This document shows, in pieces, positions 1 to 34,757 of a DNA stretch of 34,757 nucleotides. The translations under genes and the position numbers were made by a program. The notes under the pieces are model-generated. The model was not told where the DNA came from, ran no database searches, and saw only the letters and a program-made list of their open reading frames with translations. Source of the DNA: a virus; the IMG/VR virus record IMGVR_UViG_3300044939_000036, positions 1-34,757 of that record; one strand, given 5' to 3'. Within the stretch, counting starts at the first letter, position 1. Each line of letters begins with the position of its first letter.

Positions 1-127
1 GCCCAGTCGTTGAACTTGTCTTCGACCGCAGATTGGTCGAGCACGTCGCCGTACTCGCCGTAGATCCGCATGATCGCCTCGAAAAACAGGTTCTTGCCAG
101 CACCCTGCGGCCCGTGCACAACCACGG
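1..127. repeat. Terminal duplication, copy 1 (identical to 34631-34757)
   Basis: Base-by-base identity read directly. The overlap runs to the last base of the window. Confidence 0.97.
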
Positions 128-1667
128 TAGTTTTCATCTTCGCGCCCGGATGCTGGATCGGATACGCAACCCACCGCAGAACCCACTGATACAGCCCCTC
201 CGGGTCGCGATCCTGGCTGCACAGGTAGCGCAGCAGGTCGAGCAGCCGTTCGCAGCGGCCAGCCTTTGGTTTCGTCGGCCACCCAGCGAATAGATTGCAC
301 TTCACCTCAGGATCACGGCCGGTCGGGTCAAAGCCGACTTCCGACGGCCGCACGATCTTGCGGTCCGGCGACTCCGACCACGCCCGCCAGATCAGCCTGT
401 TGGCGCAGGCCTCGCGCATGTCAGACAGCGAGATCAGCCGATGCTCGACCGAATCGAACACCGCGCCGCCGTGCCCGTACACCAGAAAGAACCGCGACAG
501 CAGTTCATCCGGCGACAGGAATGGCCGAAGCGGCGACTCCGCGTCGCCGCCCCCGTCCCCTCCGGCCGGTGGCGGCGCGCTGAGGCGCTGCCGTGGCGAC
601 CAGCCGAGATCCGACAGGCAGGCCTCGACCTGTGTGCGCACCACGTGCAGGCCTTCCTTCACGTGGAGATCGTTGAAATCGGTGAGTTTCACGCCACGCG
701 ACAGGAAGGCCTCGCGCCTGCCAGCCTGATCCGCGAAACGCGGGGCCACCCATGCCCCGGACACCGCCAGCGCCGCGCTGCTGGCCGCGCTGATCCCGGC
801 ATTCTGACAGCCGTGCGGCTGGCCACAGTGTGGGCAGTCCTTGACCGCCTCCGACAGCACCAGCCGTTCGCCGCACTTCCGGCACTTACCGAGGTCATCA
901 TCGTCCGCGCAGATCAGGATCTTCGCCAGCGCGTACCGCTTGTGCAGCGCCTCGGCTACCGGCAGCAGGTTGCCAGCATCGAAGGCCACGGCCACCGGAT
1001 ATTGCGTGGCCATGTGCAGGCTGGCCGCTGTGGCGTAGCCCTCGGCGATCAGGATGATCCAGCTTGGGGAGCCAAGCAGGTGGAAGTGGCCGCGCTTGGC
1101 AAGTCCGCCCGGCCAAAACTCTTTGGCTGGCCGTTTTGCTTTCTCGGCGGCCGACGCCGTCCGCAGGAACTGCAGGCCGTGGATTTGGCCTGCCACATCG
1201 AGCAGCGGCACCACCGCCGTGCCGTTCGGTGTGTAGCGCAGGCCGAAGCCCTGCACGCACTTGGCCTGCAGGTAGCCTGCGACGCCGGCAGGCTCAGGCG
1301 CAAGCCGCGCCCACATCGCACGCGCACGCGCGGCGGCCTTGGCGTGCATCTCGGCCTGGGCGCGCTCGGCCTTCTTGCGGTCCTCGGCAGCACGCCTCTT
1401 GATGGCGGCCAGCTCATCTTTCGACAACTCACGCTTGCGCAGCTTGATCTTCTGCGCGCCGTTGTCGTTGCCGTGCCAGACCCCGTATGAGCCGACGATG
1501 AGCGCCTCGCCGCTGGAGGTGGTCAGCGCATGCAGGCAGTACCAGCCGCGCTTTTCGCGGTCGCCCTCGACCTTGCACCGCACCAGACGGCCAGAGACAT
1601 CGGGCGGGCCATCAAGGATCAGGCCAGCCTCGCGTAGCTGCGCAATGACGTCATTGAGGTTGCCCAT
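1..1667 (-). CDS. Toprim primase / SF3 helicase fusion, N-terminal 555 codons (continues across the junction into 33874-34630)
   Basis: Hand translation of the minus frame from ATG 1667 shows no stop down to base 1. It starts MGNLNDVIAQLREAG..GWYCLH..GSYGVWHGNDNGAQKI. Toprim motifs are IAEGYATAAS and ICADDDD. It runs in frame into VVVHGPQGAGK. The ORF track omits it because the stop lies outside this end of the window. Confidence 0.9.
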   Translation of the reverse strand, partial: MGNLNDVIAQLREAGLILDGPPDVSGRLVRCKVEGDREKRGWYCLHALTTSSGEALIVGSYGVWHGNDNGAQKIKLRKRELSKDELAAIKRRAAEDRKKAERAQAEMHAKAAARARAMWARLAPEPAGVAGYLQAKCVQGFGLRYTPNGTAVVPLLDVAGQIHGLQFLRTASAAEKAKRPAKEFWPGGLAKRGHFHLLGSPSWIILIAEGYATAASLHMATQYPVAVAFDAGNLLPVAEALHKRYALAKILICADDDDLGKCRKCGERLVLSEAVKDCPHCGQPHGCQNAGISAASSAALAVSGAWVAPRFADQAGRREAFLSRGVKLTDFNDLHVKEGLHVVRTQVEACLSDLGWSPRQRLSAPPPAGGDGGGDAESPLRPFLSPDELLSRFFLVYGHGGAVFDSVEHRLISLSDMREACANRLIWRAWSESPDRKIVRPSEVGFDPTGRDPEVKCNLFAGWPTKPKAGRCERLLDLLRYLCSQDRDPEGLYQWVLRWVAYPIQHPGAKMKTTVVVHGPQGAGKNLFFEAIMRIYGEYGDVLDQSAVEDKFNDW

Positions 1668-1832
1668 TCAGCAACCTCGACGCCCGCTATCTACCGTATC
1701 GACGGGGCCCGAATTACCCTCGACCGCCGCGGCCAGGAAGAACCTATCGCCCGGCGTCCAGGCCAGACGCCACGCATCGTGACTGCGCATCGCAGGGACT
1801 GAATCCGCCAGCGCGACAACCCAATCCAACAT
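1668..1832 (-). CDS. Hypothetical small protein (54 aa)
   Basis: ATG at 1832. Its TGA directly abuts the primase ATG (TGAATG). No clear SD. It is the tail of a longer, implausible ORF in the track. Confidence 0.3.
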   Translation of the reverse strand: MLDWVVALADSVPAMRSHDAWRLAWTPGDRFFLAAAVEGNSGPVDTVDSGRRGC

Positions 1833-3257: not shown

Positions 3258-3932
3258 ATGACTGGAATCGGTGACCGCGTTCGACAAATCCGGGAGTCCA
3301 AGACCCCGAAGTGGTCGCGCAAGTACTTGTCTCAGCTCACTGGGATATCCGAGACGGCAATCAGCGATCTCGAGCTAGGGCGAAGCAAGCGGAGCCTCTC
3401 CCTGCACAAGCTCGCGGACGCGCTCGGGGTGACGGCAACATGGCTTGAGACGGGGAGAGGGCCGCGAGAAAAGTCCGCTGTCCCCACAGATGACCTGTTC
3501 ACGGAAGTCACCGCATTCGCTGCCTCTGTCGGCCTGAGCGATGGCGAAGAAGCGCATGAGTACGCGACCACGCACGGCCTGAAGTTCCGCACGGACACGC
3601 TGCGCGAAAAGGGCTTGCTCGGGGCTAATCTGGCCGTGCTGTACGGGAAGGGCGACAGCATGTCACCGCTGATCGAGACAGGCGATGCCGTGCTGTTCGA
3701 CCTGGGCGACACCACGCCACGCCACGAATGCCTGTACGTGGTGCAGCTTCCGGGCGTGAGCGTCCATAACCAAATCAGCGTGAAGCGCGCCGAGCTGATC
3801 GGCGACATCGTGACCTTCCGCGCACTCAACCCGGCCGGTGACCACAACTGGCGCAAGCCCAGGCTCATGAACGACCCGCGCAACCCGATCACCGTGGTCG
3901 GCCGGGTGCGCTGGATCGGCAAATGGCTTTGA
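3258..3932 (+). CDS. cI: cI-like repressor (XRE HTH plus LexA/S24 autopeptidase domain)
   Basis: N-terminal HTH YLSQLTGISETAISDLELG. C-terminal GDSMSP (catalytic Ser) and a downstream VKR Lys region. The start is chosen at ATG 3258. The longer track ORF overlaps the divergent cro-like gene. Confidence 0.9.
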   Translation: MTGIGDRVRQIRESKTPKWSRKYLSQLTGISETAISDLELGRSKRSLSLHKLADALGVTATWLETGRGPREKSAVPTDDLFTEVTAFAASVGLSDGEEAHEYATTHGLKFRTDTLREKGLLGANLAVLYGKGDSMSPLIETGDAVLFDLGDTTPRHECLYVVQLPGVSVHNQISVKRAELIGDIVTFRALNPAGDHNWRKPRLMNDPRNPITVVGRVRWIGKWL

Positions 3933-4235: not shown

Positions 4236-4562
4236 ATGTCTGACGCACCGAAAGTCAAGGTCCATCTCGATGGTGAGTTCTCCGCCAGCGAACTTGAAGG
4301 AATAATTCACAGACTTGCGCAAGCGCGCGCCAGCCTCTTGCCGGCTGTGCCACGTGATCCGCCCTCTATTGCCTCCGATGCTGAGGCGCTTGTCCAGGAA
4401 GAGGCAGAATTTCGTGTCCGCACACTTGCAGACGGGGGGCTTCGCATCTGGCTGCGCAACGAGGGCCTTGGGTGGATTGCTTTCACTGTGAGCCGACGGG
4501 ATAGAGATTCCCTGGCCGAGTTCCTCAGCAAGAAGATCGGCCACTCGCACAAGTCGCACTGA
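4236..4562 (+). CDS. Hypothetical protein (108 aa), immunity-region moron
   Basis: Same direction as cI. Lower GC than its flanks. The sequence (..GLRIWLRNEGLGWIAFTVSRRDRDSL..) is more protein-like than the antisense ORF 4221-4595. Confidence 0.5.
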   Translation: MSDAPKVKVHLDGEFSASELEGIIHRLAQARASLLPAVPRDPPSIASDAEALVQEEAEFRVRTLADGGLRIWLRNEGLGWIAFTVSRRDRDSLAEFLSKKIGHSHKSH

Positions 4563-4688
4563 CATCACGCCCTCCATAGGGTGTAAACCAAACAATTCGT
4601 TCGCCTCGCCGCCGCCTTGCGGCGCGGCTTAGCTCAGGCTGCCGCCACAGCGCCCCATCGGCGCGAGGCACAGCCTAGCAAAAAATCT

Positions 4689-8986: not shown

Positions 8987-9154
8987 ATGAGCGTCCGTCC
9001 ACACCTACTCGTGCGAGTCACGCACGTGATCCGGGCGCGGCTGGCGGCAATGCGCTTCGGCCAGCCATCGGGCCGGGTGTTGGCGACCTACCGGCTGCCC
9101 AACCATCACCGACAGGCATCCTGGCGATCCCGGCGAAAACTAAACAAGCGCTGA
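8987..9154 (+). CDS. Possible very basic small protein (55 aa)
   Basis: GGAGG 6 nt before the ATG and high GC3. It competes with the alternative frame 8956-9216, which has a TGATG overlap with the previous gene. Confidence 0.3.
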   Translation: MSVRPHLLVRVTHVIRARLAAMRFGQPSGRVLATYRLPNHHRQASWRSRRKLNKR

Positions 9155-9172
9155 ACAATGAGCGCTGTGGCC

Positions 9173-9200
9173 TTGCACATGCACGCAATGCGTGTATCAT
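9173..9200 (+). promoter_or_regulatory. Sigma70-like promoter TTGCAC-N16-TATCAT with a perfect 13-bp palindrome CACGCA-A-TGCGTG (9182-9194) in the spacer
   Basis: Read directly. Lies 65 nt upstream of the 9265 gene. Confidence 0.5.
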
Positions 9201-9264
9201 ACGACCATGGCAGTAGGCGCTGCCGCCCGCGCCTCGGGGGGGCTTCAGGGGCTAGGAGAGTAAG

Positions 9265-9588
9265 GTGACCTACTCAGACGACATGCTGAAGAAACTCAGC
9301 GCTTTCGCAGCCGCGACGAACAATGAACTGTTCGATCCGGATTACAACGGAGGGGAGTGGCTGGTCGATGCAATAGAGACTCACGAAACGCTCGAACAGT
9401 TCGAGCAGTCCAGCAAAGGCTGGGCCACCGTCAGCCCAATGAAGACCGGCCACATCGCCGGAATGCCGTACCGCGCATGGCCGGTTGCGCAGGCCATGAA
9501 GGGACAACCGAGGCAGGCCATCTCAGTAGTTGACTTCGGGGACGTGCGGATTGCTTTGCCAGGGACAAACTTGTCCATGTTCACATGA
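9265..9588 (+). CDS. Hypothetical acidic protein (107 aa)
   Basis: GTG start with AGGAGA as SD. Protein-like sequence. Confidence 0.6.
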   Translation: MTYSDDMLKKLSAFAAATNNELFDPDYNGGEWLVDAIETHETLEQFEQSSKGWATVSPMKTGHIAGMPYRAWPVAQAMKGQPRQAISVVDFGDVRIALPGTNLSMFT

Positions 9589-9613
9589 CATACCACCAAC
9601 AACACCGGTCCTG

Positions 9614-9868
9614 ATGGCGAATCACCCAAACAGAAACCGCCGCCGGTCGAACCCGGCGGCAAATCCAACACCCGCGCAAATCCGCGCCGCGCGCGTCGCG
9701 GCAGGCCTCACGCAGACAGAGGCCGCGGCCCTGATCTATGCCACGCTAAGAACGTGGCAGGACTGGGAGGCGGGTAAGCGGCGCATGCACCCAGCCTTCT
9801 GGGAGCTCTGGCGCGCCAAGTCATCTCGCCTCGCCCCACGTATTCCCCACGGGGCGGCTGAAAGCTAA
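9614..9868 (+). CDS. XRE-family HTH protein (84 aa)
   Basis: The segment PTPAQIRAARVAAGLTQTEAAALIYATLRTWQDWEAGKRRMHPAFWELW is a recognisable small XRE-type HTH. The start is chosen at ATG 9614. Confidence 0.75.
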   Translation: MANHPNRNRRRSNPAANPTPAQIRAARVAAGLTQTEAAALIYATLRTWQDWEAGKRRMHPAFWELWRAKSSRLAPRIPHGAAES

Positions 9869-24917: not shown

Positions 24918-25750
24918 GCCTGCACCGCCAGTCGCGCCGTGGCGCGGAAACGTCGGCACAGGCCCTCGCCATCGGCCCGATGGCGGAAGCGCTCGCACAT
25001 GGCGATGTGCGCATCGGCGATGCACTGCACGTCTGCGGCAGGCACGCACTCATCGCGCAGGCGGCGCATCTCCGCCCGCGACTCACCGCGCATGCTCGCG
25101 CCGCGCGCGTACACGGTGACCACCAGCGCGCCTTGCGCATTGGGCGGCAGGCGGTCCCAACCGTTCTGGAACGTGCGTTCCGTCAGCCGGGCGTAGGCTG
25201 GCAGGCTCACGCCCGTAAAGACCTGCTCGGCCATCGGGAATGGCGTCTTGACGTCTTGGCGCTCGGCGCGATAGGCGCGGCACGGCGCGAAGCCGCGCAC
25301 GCCGCTGCCATCCTTCAGGGCTGCGACACGCGGATGCACGCGCCAGTCGCTTTCGATTCGCGCCGGCGGCTGCACGCCCAGGTCATAGCCGATGCCGATT
25401 GTCGGGCCGCTAATATCGCCAGGGCAGGCGAAGCCCTGCAGACGGGCTTGATAGTAGGCCGGGGAAACAACTTCCTGCTCAATCAGCAGGCTGACAGCCG
25501 CAGGCGCGACCGCCGCAGGGGCGGGCACGTCCTGCACAGGCGATTCAACCACGTCCTGCACGATGGCCTGCACGTCGGCTTGCGTCTCGATCAGCGGCAT
25601 CGACACCGCCTCGGCCGCCGTCTGCTGCACCTCAGCCGCAACGGGCGCGACTGCCTGCTGCACGGCCTCAGCCGTGCGCTGGACATGCTCTGGCCTGGCG
25701 CATCCGAGCACCGCGCACAGGGCCAGTACGAGCATGATCCGCTCCATCAT
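24914..25750 (-). CDS. Endolysin candidate: lipobox-type signal peptide, VQ/A/P-rich linker, lysozyme-like C-terminal domain
   Basis: MMERIMLVLALCAVLGC, then PGDISGPTIGIGYDLG, which resembles the D-x5-T-IGIG core of T4/pesticin-type lysozymes. Lies between the holin and the spanins. Confidence 0.55.
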   Translation of the reverse strand: MMERIMLVLALCAVLGCARPEHVQRTAEAVQQAVAPVAAEVQQTAAEAVSMPLIETQADVQAIVQDVVESPVQDVPAPAAVAPAAVSLLIEQEVVSPAYYQARLQGFACPGDISGPTIGIGYDLGVQPPARIESDWRVHPRVAALKDGSGVRGFAPCRAYRAERQDVKTPFPMAEQVFTGVSLPAYARLTERTFQNGWDRLPPNAQGALVVTVYARGASMRGESRAEMRRLRDECVPAADVQCIADAHIAMCERFRHRADGEGLCRRFRATARLAVQA

Positions 25751-30371: not shown

Positions 30372-30574
30372 TCGCCCCTCGCGGTGCTGAACGCGAACCG
30401 ATAGTGCCCACGCCCGCCACTGGCTGCCGATAGCTGCTCGGCCACGTGCTGCCGTGCGCGCAGCAGTTCATCCATCGACCGATACTGCACGCGACGGTCG
30501 CCGTACTGCACCACCAGCTGGCTGCTGGCGATGGCTCGATCAAGGGCTTCCAGGTCGGCTTGCGTGTAGGACAT
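30368..30574 (-). CDS. Head-tail joining protein gpW-like (68 aa)
   Basis: LEALDRAIASSQLVVQYGDRRVQYRSMDELL aligns with the lambda W pattern (..VQKDGRRVEF..L). The start is uncertain; an alternative ATG lies at 30604. Confidence 0.7.
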   Translation of the reverse strand: MSYTQADLEALDRAIASSQLVVQYGDRRVQYRSMDELLRARQHVAEQLSAASGGRGHYRFAFSTARGD

Positions 30575-31028
30575 CGCGGCCAATGTTGTGGCGGATGCCC
30601 TCATGTTCCTGGTCTGTGTGCGTCCCGTCTTGGGGAATAGGGACGCACTCCGCCACGTCACGCGACGCGGCGCCAAGGTCTAGCGGGCGCGCGAGCACCC
30701 AATACAGCGTTTTGCGGCTGATCCGGAACTGCCGGCAGATTTCCCGGATCGAATACTGGCCGGAATCCACTGCCTGACGCAGCTCCCGCACCGGGTACTT
30801 CACCTCTGCGGCGGGGATGTAGAGATCCTGCGCAGGGTAGGCCTCGCGCAGGTAGTCCACCACGGCGATCACGATGGGGCGAATGTCATCCGCATTCGCC
30901 CGCAGCCGCTTGGCCGCGCCGATGGTGAGTTCCTCCACGAGCGCGGAGACCATCGCCCTGGTGCGGCGGGTGTTGCGCCCACGCCGGGTGCGGACATGGT
31001 GCGCATCATGTGCCTGCTCGCTCACCAC
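30540..31028 (-). CDS. Mor-family transcription activator-like protein
   Basis: IVIAVVDYLREAYPAQDLYIPAAE..RELRQAVDSGQYSIREICRQFRISRKTLYWVL parallels Mu Mor (EIVVAICKHLGGGQVYIP..RDLRIWNDFNGRNVSELTTRYGVTFNTVYKAI). The GTG starts at 31028/31025 overlap the TerL stop. An alternative ATG lies at 30953. Confidence 0.6.
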   Translation of the reverse strand: MVSEQAHDAHHVRTRRGRNTRRTRAMVSALVEELTIGAAKRLRANADDIRPIVIAVVDYLREAYPAQDLYIPAAEVKYPVRELRQAVDSGQYSIREICRQFRISRKTLYWVLARPLDLGAASRDVAECVPIPQDGTHTDQEHEGIRHNIGRDVLHASRPGSP

Positions 31029-32953
31029 TGCCTCCGGAATGCTGACTGCCCTGCGGGTGCGCCCTGCGGCCTTGGCGGGGCTGGCGCTTGGCCTTGGCTT
31101 GGCGGCGCCGGCCGCGCCGGCTCACCGCTGGCCTGCGCCTGCGACTCTGCGCCAGTGGCAGCGCGCAGCATCGCTTCGCGGGTGTCCCAATCGGCCTTCG
31201 TCCAGCGGTGCAGGCGGACTGCCGGGTGGTGGGTGGCGGCGTAGGCATACACCCAGGTATCCAGCGGTTCGTTGCGAGGTGCGCCACGGCGCGGCTCGAA
31301 GCGATTTTTGGTCGGGTTGTAGGTTTCGCTGACCAGCCCGCCGAAGTAGTCCGACGAAAGCTGCTCCGAAAATCTGACCCGGCGATGTTCCGGCTCCCGA
31401 TCCGCATCTGCAGACAGCCAGCTGTAGAGCAGGTGCTTGATGGCGACCGTGCCGACCTGATGGATCTGCACGCCGCGTGGATCCATGCGCCCGCGCCAGT
31501 TCACGTCCGCGGCCTTGCCCTTGCCGAGCACCGGCGCGTTGTTGGCTGTTGCGCCGAACCCGGCCAGCAGGCGACGCACGCGGCCGCTGCGCACGAATGC
31601 CTTGACCGCTTCGGTGCGGTGACCGCCGATGTCGATCAAGCCGGCATCCACCCAAAGCAGCGCGCCGTCCTTGCGCTCAATAGGCCGGCTGAGCAGGTCC
31701 GTCAGGGAATCCCAGACCGGATCATCGGCCGGATCACCCGGCAGTTCCACGTAGTCGATGGGCCAGCAGACCATGCCGCGACCCCATCCGAGCAACTGCA
31801 CGGCCAGCCGGTTGTCCTGCGTGTCGATGCCGACCGTGACGGCCAGCACCCATTCCGGAACGGGCCGCAGCGGCACCGGCTCGGCACGGTCGGCGATGAC
31901 GTTGTGCCGCACGGCACGCATGGCCGGGTCATCCCACGGCTCTGCCAGCCGGTCATTCACGAAGGTCTTGAGTTTGGCCGGATCAGACTGCGCCTCGCGC
32001 CACATGCGCACCAGATCGAGCCAGCGCGGGCCCAGGCCAAGCTGGTAGTACAGGCAGTTAATGTGGTAGCCGCGCATCGTGCCTGCAGGGTTTTCCGGCA
32101 CCCATTCACCGGCCGCGATCATCGACGTCTTGTGGTGTTCCTCGATGCAGGCGCCGCACTCCCGACAGACATACCAGCACTGGCTGCCATCCGGCGTGTA
32201 GTGCAGGCCGCGCCACTCCAGCGGTTGGCGGTGGCCGCAGTGCGGGCAGGGGACGTAGTACCGGCGCTGGTCGGACTTTTCCCATAGTTGCTCCGTGCGG
32301 CTGACGCCACGGATGCCAGGCGTGGAGATGTACGCCCGCTTGTAGGTCGCCGGGAAGGCCGAGGTGCGGCCCTCGAGCATCGCCACCGGGTCATCGCCGC
32401 TGCTGAGCCTATTCGCAAACTCATCCAGCTCATCCACCAGCAGGGTGCGCACGCTGACCATCTTGAGCCGCCCCGGCGTGCCGGCGTGCTCGATGTAGAG
32501 CTGGCCGCCATCGAAATCCTTGAACGTGCGGCTATTGGCCGCGTCGCGGCTGGCCATGCTGGTGAGCACGCGCTGCACCTCTGGCGTGCTCTCGATCATC
32601 GGGCTGAGTTTCTGGGCGATCCATTTGTGCATGGTGACCTCGCTCGGCAGGCACACCATGATCGGGCCAGGCGACTCGCACATGGTGTAGGCCAGTGCGT
32701 TCATCAGCACCTCGGTTTTGCCGAACTGAATGGGAAACATCAACACCACGTCACGCACCGGGCTGCGCGCGCTGAAGCAGTCCATCGGCTCGCGCAGCGG
32801 CGGGTTGCGCGAGGTGCGCCAGCGGCCAGGTTCCTGGCTGCCCTTGCTGCTCAGGATGCGATGCGCGTCGGCCCACTGGCTAACCGTGATGGCGCGCCTG
32901 GGCGCAAGCGCACGGCTGATCGCGGCATGGATTGCGGCCGCACCCTGGATCAT
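31022..32953 (-). CDS. terL: Terminase large subunit (lambda gpA family)
   Basis: SQWADAH..GRW, the zinc-finger-like CPHCGHRQPLEW and KTFVNDRLAEPWDD all parallel lambda gpA. Confidence 0.92.
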   Translation of the reverse strand: MIQGAAAIHAAISRALAPRRAITVSQWADAHRILSSKGSQEPGRWRTSRNPPLREPMDCFSARSPVRDVVLMFPIQFGKTEVLMNALAYTMCESPGPIMVCLPSEVTMHKWIAQKLSPMIESTPEVQRVLTSMASRDAANSRTFKDFDGGQLYIEHAGTPGRLKMVSVRTLLVDELDEFANRLSSGDDPVAMLEGRTSAFPATYKRAYISTPGIRGVSRTEQLWEKSDQRRYYVPCPHCGHRQPLEWRGLHYTPDGSQCWYVCRECGACIEEHHKTSMIAAGEWVPENPAGTMRGYHINCLYYQLGLGPRWLDLVRMWREAQSDPAKLKTFVNDRLAEPWDDPAMRAVRHNVIADRAEPVPLRPVPEWVLAVTVGIDTQDNRLAVQLLGWGRGMVCWPIDYVELPGDPADDPVWDSLTDLLSRPIERKDGALLWVDAGLIDIGGHRTEAVKAFVRSGRVRRLLAGFGATANNAPVLGKGKAADVNWRGRMDPRGVQIHQVGTVAIKHLLYSWLSADADREPEHRRVRFSEQLSSDYFGGLVSETYNPTKNRFEPRRGAPRNEPLDTWVYAYAATHHPAVRLHRWTKADWDTREAMLRAATGAESQAQASGEPARPAPPSQGQAPAPPRPQGAPAGQSAFRRQW

Positions 32954-33558
32954 GCCGCCCCCTCCCGCGCGATCTGCGCGAACTGGCGGGAGAGCTGCTC
33001 GAGCAGTCGTTCGATGGCATCGGCTAGCAGCGCGCGGCAGCGCGCCTCGTCGGACTCGGCCGCCAGGATCGGCGCCAGCGTCACCGGCAGCGCCTCCAGG
33101 CCGTTGCGCAGCTCGCCAGCCGCCAGCCGGGCGGCCTGAAGGACATCCTCGCGCCGCAGCAGCATGCCGAGCTCGATCTGCTCATCGCGCAGAGCCTTGC
33201 GCGCCTCGGCCTCGGCCTTTTCGGCCAGGGCGCGTGCCCGCCTGAGTGCGATTGGCTCCCCGGAATCCGCCTGGAATGCGTCTAGATCGCTTTCTGGCGC
33301 TTCCTCGCCCCCGACCCTATAGGGTGGTAGCGGCTTGGTGCTGTCTGCGCCTGCTGCGCGTTTCTGGCGCGTTCCTGGCCGGGATGGGTCGGCGGTCTGG
33401 TCGATCAGTGCCAGGCTTGCCTTGACCAGGATCTTGCCGTCGGCGTCGAGCACCAGCCGGCCTTCGTCCTTGAGCTGCGTGACGTAGCTCGGGCTGACAT
33501 CCAGAACCCTGGCGAACTGCCGGGCCGTCACCGCGCTGTCTCCCTTCGTCGCCACCAC
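32950..33558 (-). CDS. terS: Terminase small subunit (Nu1-like, N-terminal wHTH)
   Basis: VTARQFARVLDVSPSYVTQLKDEG is an HTH, and the C-terminal region resembles Nu1. ATGA coupling to terL. The start is probably GTG 33558 or 33555; the track uses TTG 33576. Confidence 0.72.
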   Translation of the reverse strand: MVATKGDSAVTARQFARVLDVSPSYVTQLKDEGRLVLDADGKILVKASLALIDQTADPSRPGTRQKRAAGADSTKPLPPYRVGGEEAPESDLDAFQADSGEPIALRRARALAEKAEAEARKALRDEQIELGMLLRREDVLQAARLAAGELRNGLEALPVTLAPILAAESDEARCRALLADAIERLLEQLSRQFAQIAREGAA

Positions 33559-33563
33559 CTCAC

Positions 33564-33583
33564 CCCCTTTTCCCAAAAAGGGG
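33564..33583. promoter_or_regulatory. Perfect hairpin CCCCTTTT-CCCA-AAAAGGGG overlapping the TerS ribosome-binding region
   Basis: Read directly. The G-rich arm on the mRNA strand (AAAAGGGG) is the only SD-like element before the GTG starts. Confidence 0.4.
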
Positions 33584-33606
33584 AGATGGAGAGAAAGGGC
33601 GCGCGC

Positions 33607-33862
33607 GTGCAGGGTACGCGCACCCCTGCACGCACCCCTGCACGCGTGGAACCCGCGTCACGCCTGCTTTGTGCAGGGCGTGCAGGGTGTGCAGGGGTAC
33701 ATACACGCGCGCGACACGCCACACACGCACATGCCCGCATGCCTGCGCACACTCGCACGCCTGTGCGTGCGTATAGGACCTCTGCACGCCCTGCACAAGC
33801 CAATACTGGCGCGGGTTTCGACCCTGCACGCCACCCTGCACGCCACCCTGCACACCCTGCAC
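33607..33862. repeat. Iteron array: 12 copies of CCTGCAC/GTGCAGG in five clusters with overall dyad symmetry (cos or ori candidate)
   Basis: GTGCAGGG copies start at 33607, 33671, 33680 and 33689. (C)CCTGCAC copies lie within the tandem 12-mers 33621-33632 and 33633-33644, at 33782 and 33789, and within 33821-33862 (four copies). An 8-bp inverted pair (AACCCGCG 33650-33657, CGCGGGTT 33810-33817) flanks the centre. Confidence 0.85.
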
Positions 33863-33873
33863 ATAACCAAACG

Positions 33874-34757
33874 TCATGATGCGCTACCTCCGGGAAGCTG
33901 GCCTTTGTACTCGGCCAGTTGCTCACGGACGTCGATATAGCAGCGCCCCAGCCAGTCCTGTTGTGACTCCCCCTCAGGGGCCTCTGAACGCCCCAACATG
34001 AGGAAGTAGTGCGGACCTCGCTCGCGGCCTGCCACGCTATAGCGGCATCGCTTCTTGTCCACTCGCCTAGAGCGTACCAGAGATGTGACGAACTTTGCTT
34101 CCGGCGCAGGGCGGTATCCGTGCTTGCCGCACCAGACCCGGTACAGCTCATACCAGTCCGTGGTGAGGCCTGGGATCGGCTCGACCTTTGGGATATCGCC
34201 ACGCACCAGGTCATCGTAAAACCGCAGCGGACTGTCCAGCGCGAGCTGGATCAGTTCGACCTTGGCATCGTTCACCGGCGGTGGCGTTCCAGGCCCGAAG
34301 TCCCCAAGGTCGAGATGCAGCAGGTAGTGGTGCAGCGCCTCAATGCCGCCGTTGGCGATCTCATCGCGGACGGCTGCGTAGTAGTCCGCCCGCGCCTTGC
34401 CCGGCGTCCAGATGACACAGTGCCTGCGGTCATCTTCTTCCAACACCACTGGCATTGCCTCATTGGAGAGGAACACCAGGTTCATGTGGTTGCGCTCCCA
34501 GTAGGCCGCGAAATTCTTTGGGTTGATTCGGATCCTGTCCCCAGTGATCAGTGCCTTGAGCTTGTTCTTGATGTGGTACACGTCGGAACGCGCCACCACC
34601 TCATCGGCGATCATGAACAGCTTTCTGCTGGCCCAGTCGTTGAACTTGTCTTCGACCGCAGATTGGTCGAGCACGTCGCCGTACTCGCCGTAGATCCGCA
34701 TGATCGCCTCGAAAAACAGGTTCTTGCCAGCACCCTGCGGCCCGTGCACAACCACGG
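33874..34757 (-). CDS. Toprim primase / SF3 helicase fusion, C-terminal part (P4 alpha / poxvirus D5-like NTPase plus C-terminal domain)
   Basis: Walker A motif GPQGAGK. Contains FMIADE and the D5/P4-type pattern LVFLSNE..DDRRHCVIW. Stop codon at 33874-33876. The whole protein is 807 aa once the circle is closed. Confidence 0.9.
   Translation of the reverse strand, partial: VVVHGPQGAGKNLFFEAIMRIYGEYGDVLDQSAVEDKFNDWASRKLFMIADEVVARSDVYHIKNKLKALITGDRIRINPKNFAAYWERNHMNLVFLSNEAMPVVLEEDDRRHCVIWTPGKARADYYAAVRDEIANGGIEALHHYLLHLDLGDFGPGTPPPVNDAKVELIQLALDSPLRFYDDLVRGDIPKVEPIPGLTTDWYELYRVWCGKHGYRPAPEAKFVTSLVRSRRVDKKRCRYSVAGRERGPHYFLMLGRSEAPEGESQQDWLGRCYIDVREQLAEYKGQLPGGSAS
34631..34757. repeat. Terminal duplication, copy 2 (identical to 1-127)
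   Basis: Same as copy 1. An overlap of exactly 127 nt is what a k=127 assembler leaves on a circular contig. Confidence 0.97.

Follow-up and report, generated by a model that had tools for sequence, protein, structure and literature searches.

IMG/VR record IMGVR_UViG_3300044939_000036 is a viral DNA of 34,757 nucleotides, and this whole stretch is referred to here as the window. Its first 127 nucleotides (1-127) are the same as its last 127 (34631-34757), leaving 34,630 unique bases, and this terminal direct repeat indicates that the window is a circular contig in which the gene for a primase-helicase wraps over the junction. Read across that junction, the gene is a continuous open reading frame (ORF) of 807 amino acids on the minus strand, with its ATG at 1667-1665. 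Between its stop codon and the start of the gene for the small terminase subunit (TerS), also on the minus strand, lies a gap of 315 bp (33559-33873), and in this gap stands an array of short repeats, or iterons, at 33607-33862 (256 bp), which we interpret below as the probable replication origin of the phage. A preliminary description of this DNA had recognized the repeats and offered two readings of them, either as a cohesive-end (cos) packaging region with the repeats as binding sites for TerS, or as an origin whose iterons are bound by the C-terminal domain of the adjacent P4-alpha-like primase-helicase, and it allowed for a combination of the two. The two flanking genes are indeed those that it had named; the first encodes the C-terminal part of a primase-helicase (DUF5906, with the P-loop of a superfamily 3 (SF3) helicase), and the second encodes TerS (PHROG 57).

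The array contains 11 exact copies of CCTGCAC and one CTGCAC variant at 33782, arranged as 6 + 6 repeats in opposed orientations around an 85-bp core (33697-33781), and its first iteron lies 11 bp past the primase-helicase stop codon. Every repeat that had been listed in the preliminary description was found at its position, as were the 85-bp core and an 8-bp inverted pair; its array of twelve CCTGCAC copies stands as an array, while the count becomes 11 exact copies plus the variant tCTGCAC at 33782. The repeat is enriched well above chance, in that the heptamer occurs 33 times in the window, compared with 9.4 +/- 3.1 times in shuffled sequences (shuffle maximum 18), and the 8-mer CCCTGCAC occurs 14 times compared with an expected 2.4, with 11 of the 14 inside the 256-bp array. 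In the direction of the primase gene, the iteron consensus is GTGCAGGGT, forming repeats of roughly 9 bp, and the stop codon is followed, after the 11 bp, by four GTGCAGGGT (block A, spacing 9/12/12), a 33-bp spacer, two repeats of block B (spacing 9), the 85-bp core, three inverted repeats of block C (spacing 9/9), a further 33-bp spacer, and finally block D with two forward repeats and one inverted repeat (Table 1). The CTGCAC positions in block B are 33782 and 33791, and block D is composed of GTGCAGGG at 33607 and of CACCCCTGCACG twice at 33621-33644. A second iteron cluster, as in phage P4 with its ori and crr, was sought via CCCTGCAC across the 34.6-kb genome and none was found, the other three copies being scattered singles at chance level.

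Scanning IMG/VR with the primase fragment gave 80 loci, and about 75 of these have in common a layout of block A (3-4 copies) and block B (2), a core, and the inverted blocks C (3) and D (1-3). Most loci have the start of the array 5-25 bp past the primase stop, and in nearly all of them the distance does not exceed ~65 bp. The repeat itself varies from locus to locus, with more than 25 kinds encountered (TGTGCAGGG, TGTGCGGGG, TGTGAAGGG, TGTTGCGGG, TGTCGGGGA, TGTTAAGGG, TTGCCGGAA, GGACACGG, TGTGCGGTAT and many others), while the layout persists. For example, in the nearest isolate, Stenotrophomonas phage S1 (~70% nucleotide identity over 61% of a 3.8-kb query reaching from the primase 3' end to the large terminase gene, TerL), the equivalent gap is annotated 'gp2, hypothetical protein' and shows the identical layout built from CCCGCAC instead of CCTGCAC. 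An iteron count of 6 + 6 is modal (13 of 69 loci), with six being the mode on the left in 32 of the 69 and on the right in 25 of the 69. Thus, when heptamer number and spacing are compared among related phages, the layout is conserved and the repeat sequence is not, and such a combination of fixed layout and changing repeat is as expected for protein-binding iterons that co-evolve with their protein. The two spacer elements of the 8-bp inverted pair, AACCCGCG and CGCGGGTT, are kept in the closest relatives only (L002, L003 and L005).

In the window and in ~45 short-gap relatives, TerS is the next gene after the array. About 30 loci have 0.6-3.1 kb between the primase stop and TerS, and in ~27 of these the array nonetheless adjoins the primase stop, with unrelated genes such as KilA-N, PAPS reductase, a radical-SAM-like gene and a recurrent ORF of 260-300 amino acids standing between the array and TerS. 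The commonest insert between the two is a 260-310-aa ORF with a ...VFDRPTPY... motif and no Pfam match (L050, L057, L058, L061 and L075). The array also comes right after the primase gene in four GenBank phages of lambdoid layout, Halomonas phage H4907, Pseudomonas phages Lodos and pAN, and Moraxella phage Mcat4, whose primases are distant relatives (34-38% identity). In all four, a gap of 245-345 bp follows the primase gene and bears the array, with CAGACA as the repeat in H4907, GTGTTGGG in Lodos and pAN, and ACCCTGCAC, as in the window, in Mcat4. In H4907 and Lodos, the primase gene is preceded by regulatory genes and by a cI-like repressor (or S24-type peptidase); downstream of the primase gene there are an antiterminator, lysis genes and HNH in H4907, holin genes in Lodos, holin genes and HNH in pAN, and unnamed small genes in Mcat4. 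The terminase genes follow ~2-2.9 kb past the primase stop in H4907, Lodos and Mcat4, and none is annotated in the stretch examined in pAN, which reaches the end of the record. Since the array remains next to the primase gene even at loci with a distant TerS, it belongs to the replication module.

Evidence for recognition of the repeats by the primase-helicase comes from covariation between iterons and proteins, computed on 65 non-identical primase C-termini and 55 TerS sequences without regard to kinship. Iteron similarity tracks residues 230-245 of the 293-aa primase fragment (KKRCRYSVA; ...RVDKKRCRYSVA...) with r 0.59, and with a partial r of 0.52 when overall identity is controlled; elsewhere in the primase r is ~0.1-0.3, and it is ~0.1 in the N-terminal helix-turn-helix (HTH) of TerS. 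The changes run in parallel, for example, xRKGH/Y in the protein occurs with T(C/T)TGCGG repeats and xVCRY with TGTGAAGGG.

The primase-helicase has a Toprim_3 domain at residues 205-266 and DUF5906 at residues 518-625, which is the order of P4 alpha, and its C-terminal part matches Pfam DUF5906 (E=4.9e-23), PHROG 2249 'DNA primase' and a Parvo_NS1 P-loop domain. An AlphaFold2 model of the fragment, built on an alignment of 58 sequences, has a predicted local distance difference test score (pLDDT) of 88 over the whole fragment and of 92.6 over the last 129 residues. The modelled C-terminal domain consists of two helices, a third helix (219-229), a long beta-hairpin (233-253) and a final helix, a topology that, as modelled, is that of a winged helix; the covarying segment is predicted to be the first strand of the beta-hairpin wing after helix 219-229 (pLDDT 94-98). 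Foldseek matched the whole fragment to SF3 replicative helicases, best among them NrS-1 CTR, the monkeypox virus (MPXV) protein E5 and the SaPI5 PriRep (7OLA), and also PriRep1 (7PDS), papillomavirus E1 and the Rep protein of adeno-associated virus (AAV), with E values from 1e-12 to 1e-5 across the first five of these.

Taken together, the position and architecture of the array, its conservation, its covariation with the primase, the fold class of the protein and the location of cos elsewhere in relatives lead us to conclude, at a probability of roughly 0.8, that the array at 33607-33862 and its 85-bp core are the replication origin (ori) of this phage. The origin reading of the preliminary description is thereby backed by synteny, covariation, domain architecture and structure modelling. 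We propose that the iterons would be read by the winged-helix-like C-terminal domain of the primase-helicase encoded just upstream, and that two helicase hexamers may assemble on the array, one per half-origin and with one DNA-binding domain per iteron; the count of 6 + 6 fits a double hexamer. The hexamers would then melt the core and start bidirectional theta replication, for which the primase domain of the same protein might prime synthesis.

Several observations weigh against this interpretation. The correlations given above ignore kinship, and the covariation is not one-to-one, as the window protein (KKRCRY) and those of L019-L029 (KERKRF/Y) both use GTGCAGGGT. Residues 151-170 of TerS (window ~33049-33108, minus strand) also track the iteron type, with r 0.48 and a partial r of 0.40, which may reflect linkage or subfamily structure. 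Three loci, L024, L033 and L071, are exceptions to the adjacency of primase and array, with L024 and L033 being the only loci in which a gene separates the two. Although all fold matches of the isolated C-terminal domain are winged-helix proteins (ORC/Cdc6, RTP, RFX, MarR/PadR), they are non-significant (best E=0.066), and P4 alpha (1KA8) is absent from the top 50 of them. The match to Pfam Pox_D5 (PF03288) reaches 18.3 bits, below the cut-off of 21.4, and hhalign of the C-terminal domain with the C-terminus of P4 alpha gives E=0.1 with the alignment in register. In addition, the GC content of the core is 0.66-0.68, compared with 0.65 for the genome, and since the core is thus not AT-rich, it lacks a classical unwinding element, unlike the cores of low-GC relatives.

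We also considered whether the C-terminal domain is directly homologous to the origin-binding domain of P4 alpha; such homology is not demonstrated, given the Pox_D5 score, the hhalign value and the lack of a match to 1KA8. As to the exceptional loci, L024 (2368-2903) and L033 (4870-5420) carry a P-loop ORF of 178-183 amino acids (MAIEPK...LVLCGPQGCGKT) between the primase stop and the array. L071 (IMGVR_UViG_3300007140_000039) has a divergent primase C-terminus and no array after the primase stop. Another origin-like array lies 2150-2450 bp past that stop in L071 (locus 3351-3651), ~250 bp upstream of TerS, and is built from a 21-bp unit (TTCCCGGCAGCAAA core), with six direct copies and five inverted ones arranged about a centre that is AT-rich.

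The core is the most purine-pyrimidine-alternating stretch of 85 nucleotides in the genome, its fraction of alternating steps being 0.81 where the genome averages 0.55 (z 4.5), a value reached only by genome windows that overlap the core. The cores of relatives, with a median length of 82 bp (54 loci), are likewise enriched in alternation (median z 1.7; z > 2 in 28 of 61). Relatives of low or mid GC have a core whose centre is AT-rich (GC 0.17-0.47) and lies between inverted TAyRyGCGCG / CGCGCryRTA boxes. Purine-pyrimidine alternation may replace the AT-rich unwinding element in the GC-rich members. A cruciform or hairpin in the core was not supported, as the core folded as single-stranded DNA no better than shuffled sequences (z -0.6).

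The closest parallels to this architecture are found in satellite elements and in pRN1. In the Staphylococcus aureus pathogenicity islands (SaPIs, such as SaPIbov1, SaPI1 and SaPI5), the ori consists of 6-12 iterons immediately 3' of rep, half of them on each side of a central AT-rich region and in opposed orientations (PMC9371898); these iterons are read by the C-terminal winged-helix domain of Rep, and two self-loading hexamers have been proposed (PMC9371898). The ori of phage-inducible chromosomal islands (PICIs) of Gram-negative bacteria has a SaPI-like organization, and its function was shown for EcCICFT073 (PMC6092414). In pRN1, the ORF904 protein has the order primase, SF3 helicase, winged helix, and the sole indispensable non-coding region lies downstream of orf904 (PMC2777425, PMC4234260). 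Like these islands, the window and most of the ~80 loci have the array immediately 3' of the initiator gene (11 bp in the window), and the window has 12 iterons as 6 + 6, with blocks B (2) and C (3) opposed across the core; the initiators are SF3 helicases, in SaPIs self-loading, sometimes primase-fused and equipped with a C-terminal DNA-binding domain, which is predicted in the window protein, and the iteron sequence varies between elements, as it does in SaPIs and PICIs (PMC9371898, PMC6092414). However, the window is the genome of a complete temperate siphovirus-type phage (terminase, head, tail, integrase, repressor) rather than a satellite island. Its iterons are 8-9 bp long compared with 5-6 bp in SaPIs, its centre is purine-pyrimidine alternating rather than AT-rich (AT-rich in the low-GC relatives), and the phage family shows very strong conservation of the 4+2, 3+3 arrangement of blocks and of their 9/12-bp spacing. 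The fold similarity of SaPI5 PriRep to the window protein is moderate (TM score 0.52, 18% identity).

Satellite phage P4 offers a second parallel. P4 alpha comprises a Toprim_3 primase, a DUF5906 SF3 helicase and a C-terminal domain of ~100 amino acids in the same order as the window protein, an order of primase, SF3 helicase and C-terminal domain that is also that of the fused SaPI Pri-Rep. In the P4 record, crr (4291-4590, 300 bp) holds ten 8-bp TGTTCACC (type-1) iterons in both orientations, 46 bp past the alpha stop (4636), and a separate ori lies at 9086-9809. Both crr and the window array form a block just past the initiator gene, made up of 8-bp iterons of either orientation (in the window 256 bp long and 11 bp past the stop), and the P4 iteron resembles TGTGCAGG / TGTTCCGC / TGTTAAGG of the phage family. 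By contrast, P4 needs two separate cis elements, ori and crr, ~4.5 kb apart where the window has a single cluster, crr consists of two 120-bp direct repeats where the window array is dyad-symmetric, and Pox_D5 scores 59.8 bits in P4 alpha compared with 18.3 bits in the window protein. The origins of papillomavirus E1 and SV40 large T also consist of inverted sets of short initiator-binding repeats around a melting site, on which a double hexamer assembles. However, the DNA-binding domain is N-terminal to the helicase in those proteins and would be C-terminal in the window protein, and the relation to E1 is remote, as the structural match covers only the helicase core. By analogy, the window element would work like the SaPI, PICI, P4 and pRN1 systems; it differs from them in belonging to a complete phage, in being a single dyad-symmetric locus, in its 8-9-bp repeats and in having no AT-rich centre.

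The position of the physical genome ends bears on the alternative that the array is a cos region, with the heptamers as cosB-like sites for the small terminase and cosN in the 85-bp core. Twelve related contigs start within 1-2 nucleotides of one point (GGTAATTCGGACC...), ~45 bp upstream of the primase ATG. At the start of the public IMG/VR contig L039 (1-37), the inferred genome end is joined directly to an Illumina adapter (AAGGTGACTGGAGTTCAGACGTGTGCTCTTCCGATCT), and such a fusion, though itself an assembly contamination, indicates a physical DNA terminus. The motif is internal in circular and prophage-derived contigs, where GGGTCCTCC is conserved before it and GGTAGTTAGTGGG...GTTACTGAA after it. 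The site and its flanks were noted at 1680-1750 of the window (minus strand) and in L004, L009, L011, L028 and others. The linear GenBank record of S1, from which alone the S1 termini were taken, ends in ...GGGTATTCGGACG and begins with CGCATTTCC..., that is, it shares the site with a cut 12-13 nucleotides further on, an offset expected for the two nicks of a cohesive end. An exact 17-mer of the site, GGGTAATTCGGACCCCG, is present in more than 120 IMG/VR viral contigs, some of which lack the present primase (L095, L103, L169, L176), and the site has the look of a cos site used across a broad group of phages. In the window, the terminus motif is found at 1706-1718. The inferred genome order would thus be cosN, primase, ori, TerS, TerL, with the array ~2.5 kb from the termini. 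Within the early operon, the inferred cos site falls between the primase gene and a TraR-like one.

The array does stand directly upstream of TerS in the window and its short-gap relatives, TerL is of the lambda gpA type, the core contains GC-rich, partly symmetric sequence (e.g., CGCGCGCG), and TerS residues 151-170 track the iteron type, all of which would suit a cos region. However, the array keeps to the primase gene with TerS 0.6-3 kb away, including in phages that have antiterminator and/or lysis genes before the terminase, and the N-terminal HTH of TerS shows no covariation with the repeat. The twelve related contigs, one of them adapter-fused, and the S1 record all end near the primase start, and the terminus motif is found there in the window itself. 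In addition, the TerS, which had been called Nu1-like, has no Nu1 Pfam match and is assigned by PHROG 57 only. In lambda, cosB has three 16-bp R sites, and the twelve 9-bp repeats of the window, arranged 6 + 6, are unlike them in number, size and symmetry. The inferred termini upstream of the primase gene would further place primase and ori between cosN and TerS, unlike in lambda cos, which the window resembles in having an array upstream of the small terminase gene and a gpA-type large terminase. We consider the cos reading very improbable, and it appears largely refuted by proxy, by the termini read from relatives.

Another explanation would have the array serve a dual purpose, as an origin and as a transcriptional gate between the early (replication) operon and the packaging/late genes, such that the iteron-bound primase-helicase blocks or licenses read-through into TerS, or a late promoter lies in this region. 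Primase, array and TerS are co-directional, no intrinsic terminator was predicted between primase and TerS on the minus strand (the sole terminator-like hairpin being on the plus, non-coding, strand), the array is always at the boundary where new gene cassettes begin, and it is followed by a hairpin over the ribosome-binding site of the next gene. This hairpin (33548-33606, minus strand) has a predicted RNA folding free energy of -25.5 kcal/mol but is just marginally above shuffled sequences (z -1.9), and no sigma-70-like promoter was predicted in 33400-34000. We regard this idea as unlikely, and it is a supplement to the origin explanation and not a replacement for it. It may be that the hairpin controls translation of the first gene past the origin. 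In relatives, comparable elements are found behind the array too, including cases in which a gene other than TerS comes next (e.g., L013).

The gap is also exactly filled by a 105-aa ORF (33877-33560, minus strand), as in S1 'gp2', and a frame is open over it in the window and in most GC-rich relatives, with iteron spacings of 9 and 12 bp that keep the frame. However, stops occur in all six frames of the lowest-GC relatives (GC <=0.49), the distance between the iterons flanking the core follows no triplet constraint (78, 83, 85, 87, 88, 90, 91, 92 and 93 bp), no ORF over the segment has a Pfam or PHROG match, and the repeat sequence is swapped wholesale between relatives while its positions are kept. 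A protein-coding gene is therefore rejected, on account of the closed frames, the missing triplet constraint and the lack of family matches, and is hardly credible to us; the preliminary description had likewise treated these ORFs as repeat artefacts. The hypothetical-protein coding sequences (CDSs) annotated on iteron arrays in three GenBank phages, S1 gp2 (L001 8398-8748, YP_002321452.1), L085 4378-4494 (WJZ48887.1) and L087 4539-4658 (AKI27154.1), are probably not genes. Nor does a plasmid-type partition site (centromere) of iterated repeats appear at all probable. Centromeres of the parC and parS kind are typically arrays of short repeats in two opposed sets, which the window array resembles, but no ParA-, ParB- or ParM-like protein is among the proteins scanned, the tyrosine integrase and cI-like S24 repressor are those of an integrating temperate phage, and the repeat covaries with the wing of the primase-helicase.

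Apart from the origin and its neighbours, Pfam matches in the window include the gpA-type TerL, a lambda-type portal and a protease-capsid fusion, and the window further encodes a cI-like S24 repressor, a TraR/DksA zinc-finger protein and a tyrosine integrase. From its terminase, portal, capsid, repressor and integrase genes, we take the window to be a complete integrating temperate phage. The TerS has no Pfam family at E<=0.01, its sole match being PHROG 57 'terminase small subunit', and TerS relatives outside the present synteny were limited to S1 in a tblastn search against phages and to three loci in a scan of viral contigs, none of them informative. No Rfam family reached the gathering score anywhere in the window. 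Three copies of GTCCTGCAC are present at 25531-25573, spaced 24 and 12 bp, which do not match the iteron CCCTGCAC; when inspected, they give the impression of coding sequence, although no gene was assigned to this stretch, and we judged them unrelated to the origin. Between TerL and the portal gene, a 162-aa ORF (30540-31028, minus strand) has a resolvase-type HTH (HTH_7) and a weak PHROG match to 'late transcriptional activator', and its position is unusual for a regulator.

Table 1. Coordinates of the iteron array, its surroundings and the inferred cos site in the window.
Feature	Position	Strand	Description
Iteron block A	33821..33862	+	Four ACCCTGCAC at 33821, 33833, 33845 and 33854, spacing 12/12/9; nearest the primase stop
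Spacer element CGCGGGTT	33810..33817		In the A-B spacer; symmetric to AACCCGCG
Iteron block B	33782..33796	+	Pair of copies at 9-bp spacing: cTCTGCAC (variant) at 33782, CCCTGCAC at 33789; flanks the core
Central core	33697..33781		85 bp; presumed melting region; TAyRCGCGCG-type GC boxes at its edges in inverted orientation
Iteron block C	33671..33696	-	Three GTGCAGGG at 33671, 33680 and 33689, 9-bp spacing; inverted relative to block B; flanks the core
Spacer element AACCCGCG	33650..33657		In the C-D spacer; inverted-repeat partner of CGCGGGTT
Iteron block D	33607..33644		TerS side; CCCTGCAC at 33624 and 33636 on the + strand, inverted copy at 33607-33614
(CG)n box and pyrimidine/purine hairpin	33559..33606	-	3' arm holds the TerS ribosome-binding site; junction of replication and packaging modules
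Primase-helicase, 3' part	33874..34757	-	Residues 515-807 of 807; stop TGA 33876-33874; SF3 helicase P-loop and C-terminal winged-helix-like domain
Primase-helicase, 5' part	1..1667	-	ATG 1667-1665; circular contig
TerS gene	32950..33558	-	GTG start at 33558; PHROG 57 E=2.1e-26; neighbour of the origin, outside the origin itself
Inferred cosN GGTAATTCGGGCC	1706..1718	-	38 bp 5' of the primase ATG; distance to the array ~2.5 kb; flanking motifs present

Literature searches found no description of the present origin family. What is noteworthy about it is the rigid 6 + 6 layout over many repeat specificities, the core without AT-richness in GC-rich phages, and the occurrence of a 'PICI-type' origin in complete phages. 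More broadly, we suggest, as a possibility that we hold to be less probable than its opposite when all its parts are taken jointly, that the PICI-type origin is not peculiar to satellites and is standard across a large, hitherto undescribed family of complete temperate phages from Proteobacteria, comprising S1-like cos phages and lambdoids of Pseudomonas, Moraxella and Halomonas, that the near-invariant 6 + 6 iterons serve as a landing pad with one iteron per subunit, and that a Z-DNA-prone core stands in for the AT-rich element in the GC-rich members. If this is true, the alternating core would imply another way of opening the duplex, and the more than 25 natural pairs of iteron and wing would be a readable recognition code for the DNA-binding domain. 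The finding would locate the replication origin for a group of temperate phages that is widespread but unstudied, and would correct database entries, namely S1 gp2 and the small 'hypothetical' CDSs of Halomonas phage H4907 and Moraxella phage Mcat4. With ~70 origins and more than 25 repeat specificities in one rigid layout, this set may be a resource for studying how self-loading SF3 helicases recognize and open origins, and the presence of a PICI-type origin in complete phages too bears on the source of satellite replicons.

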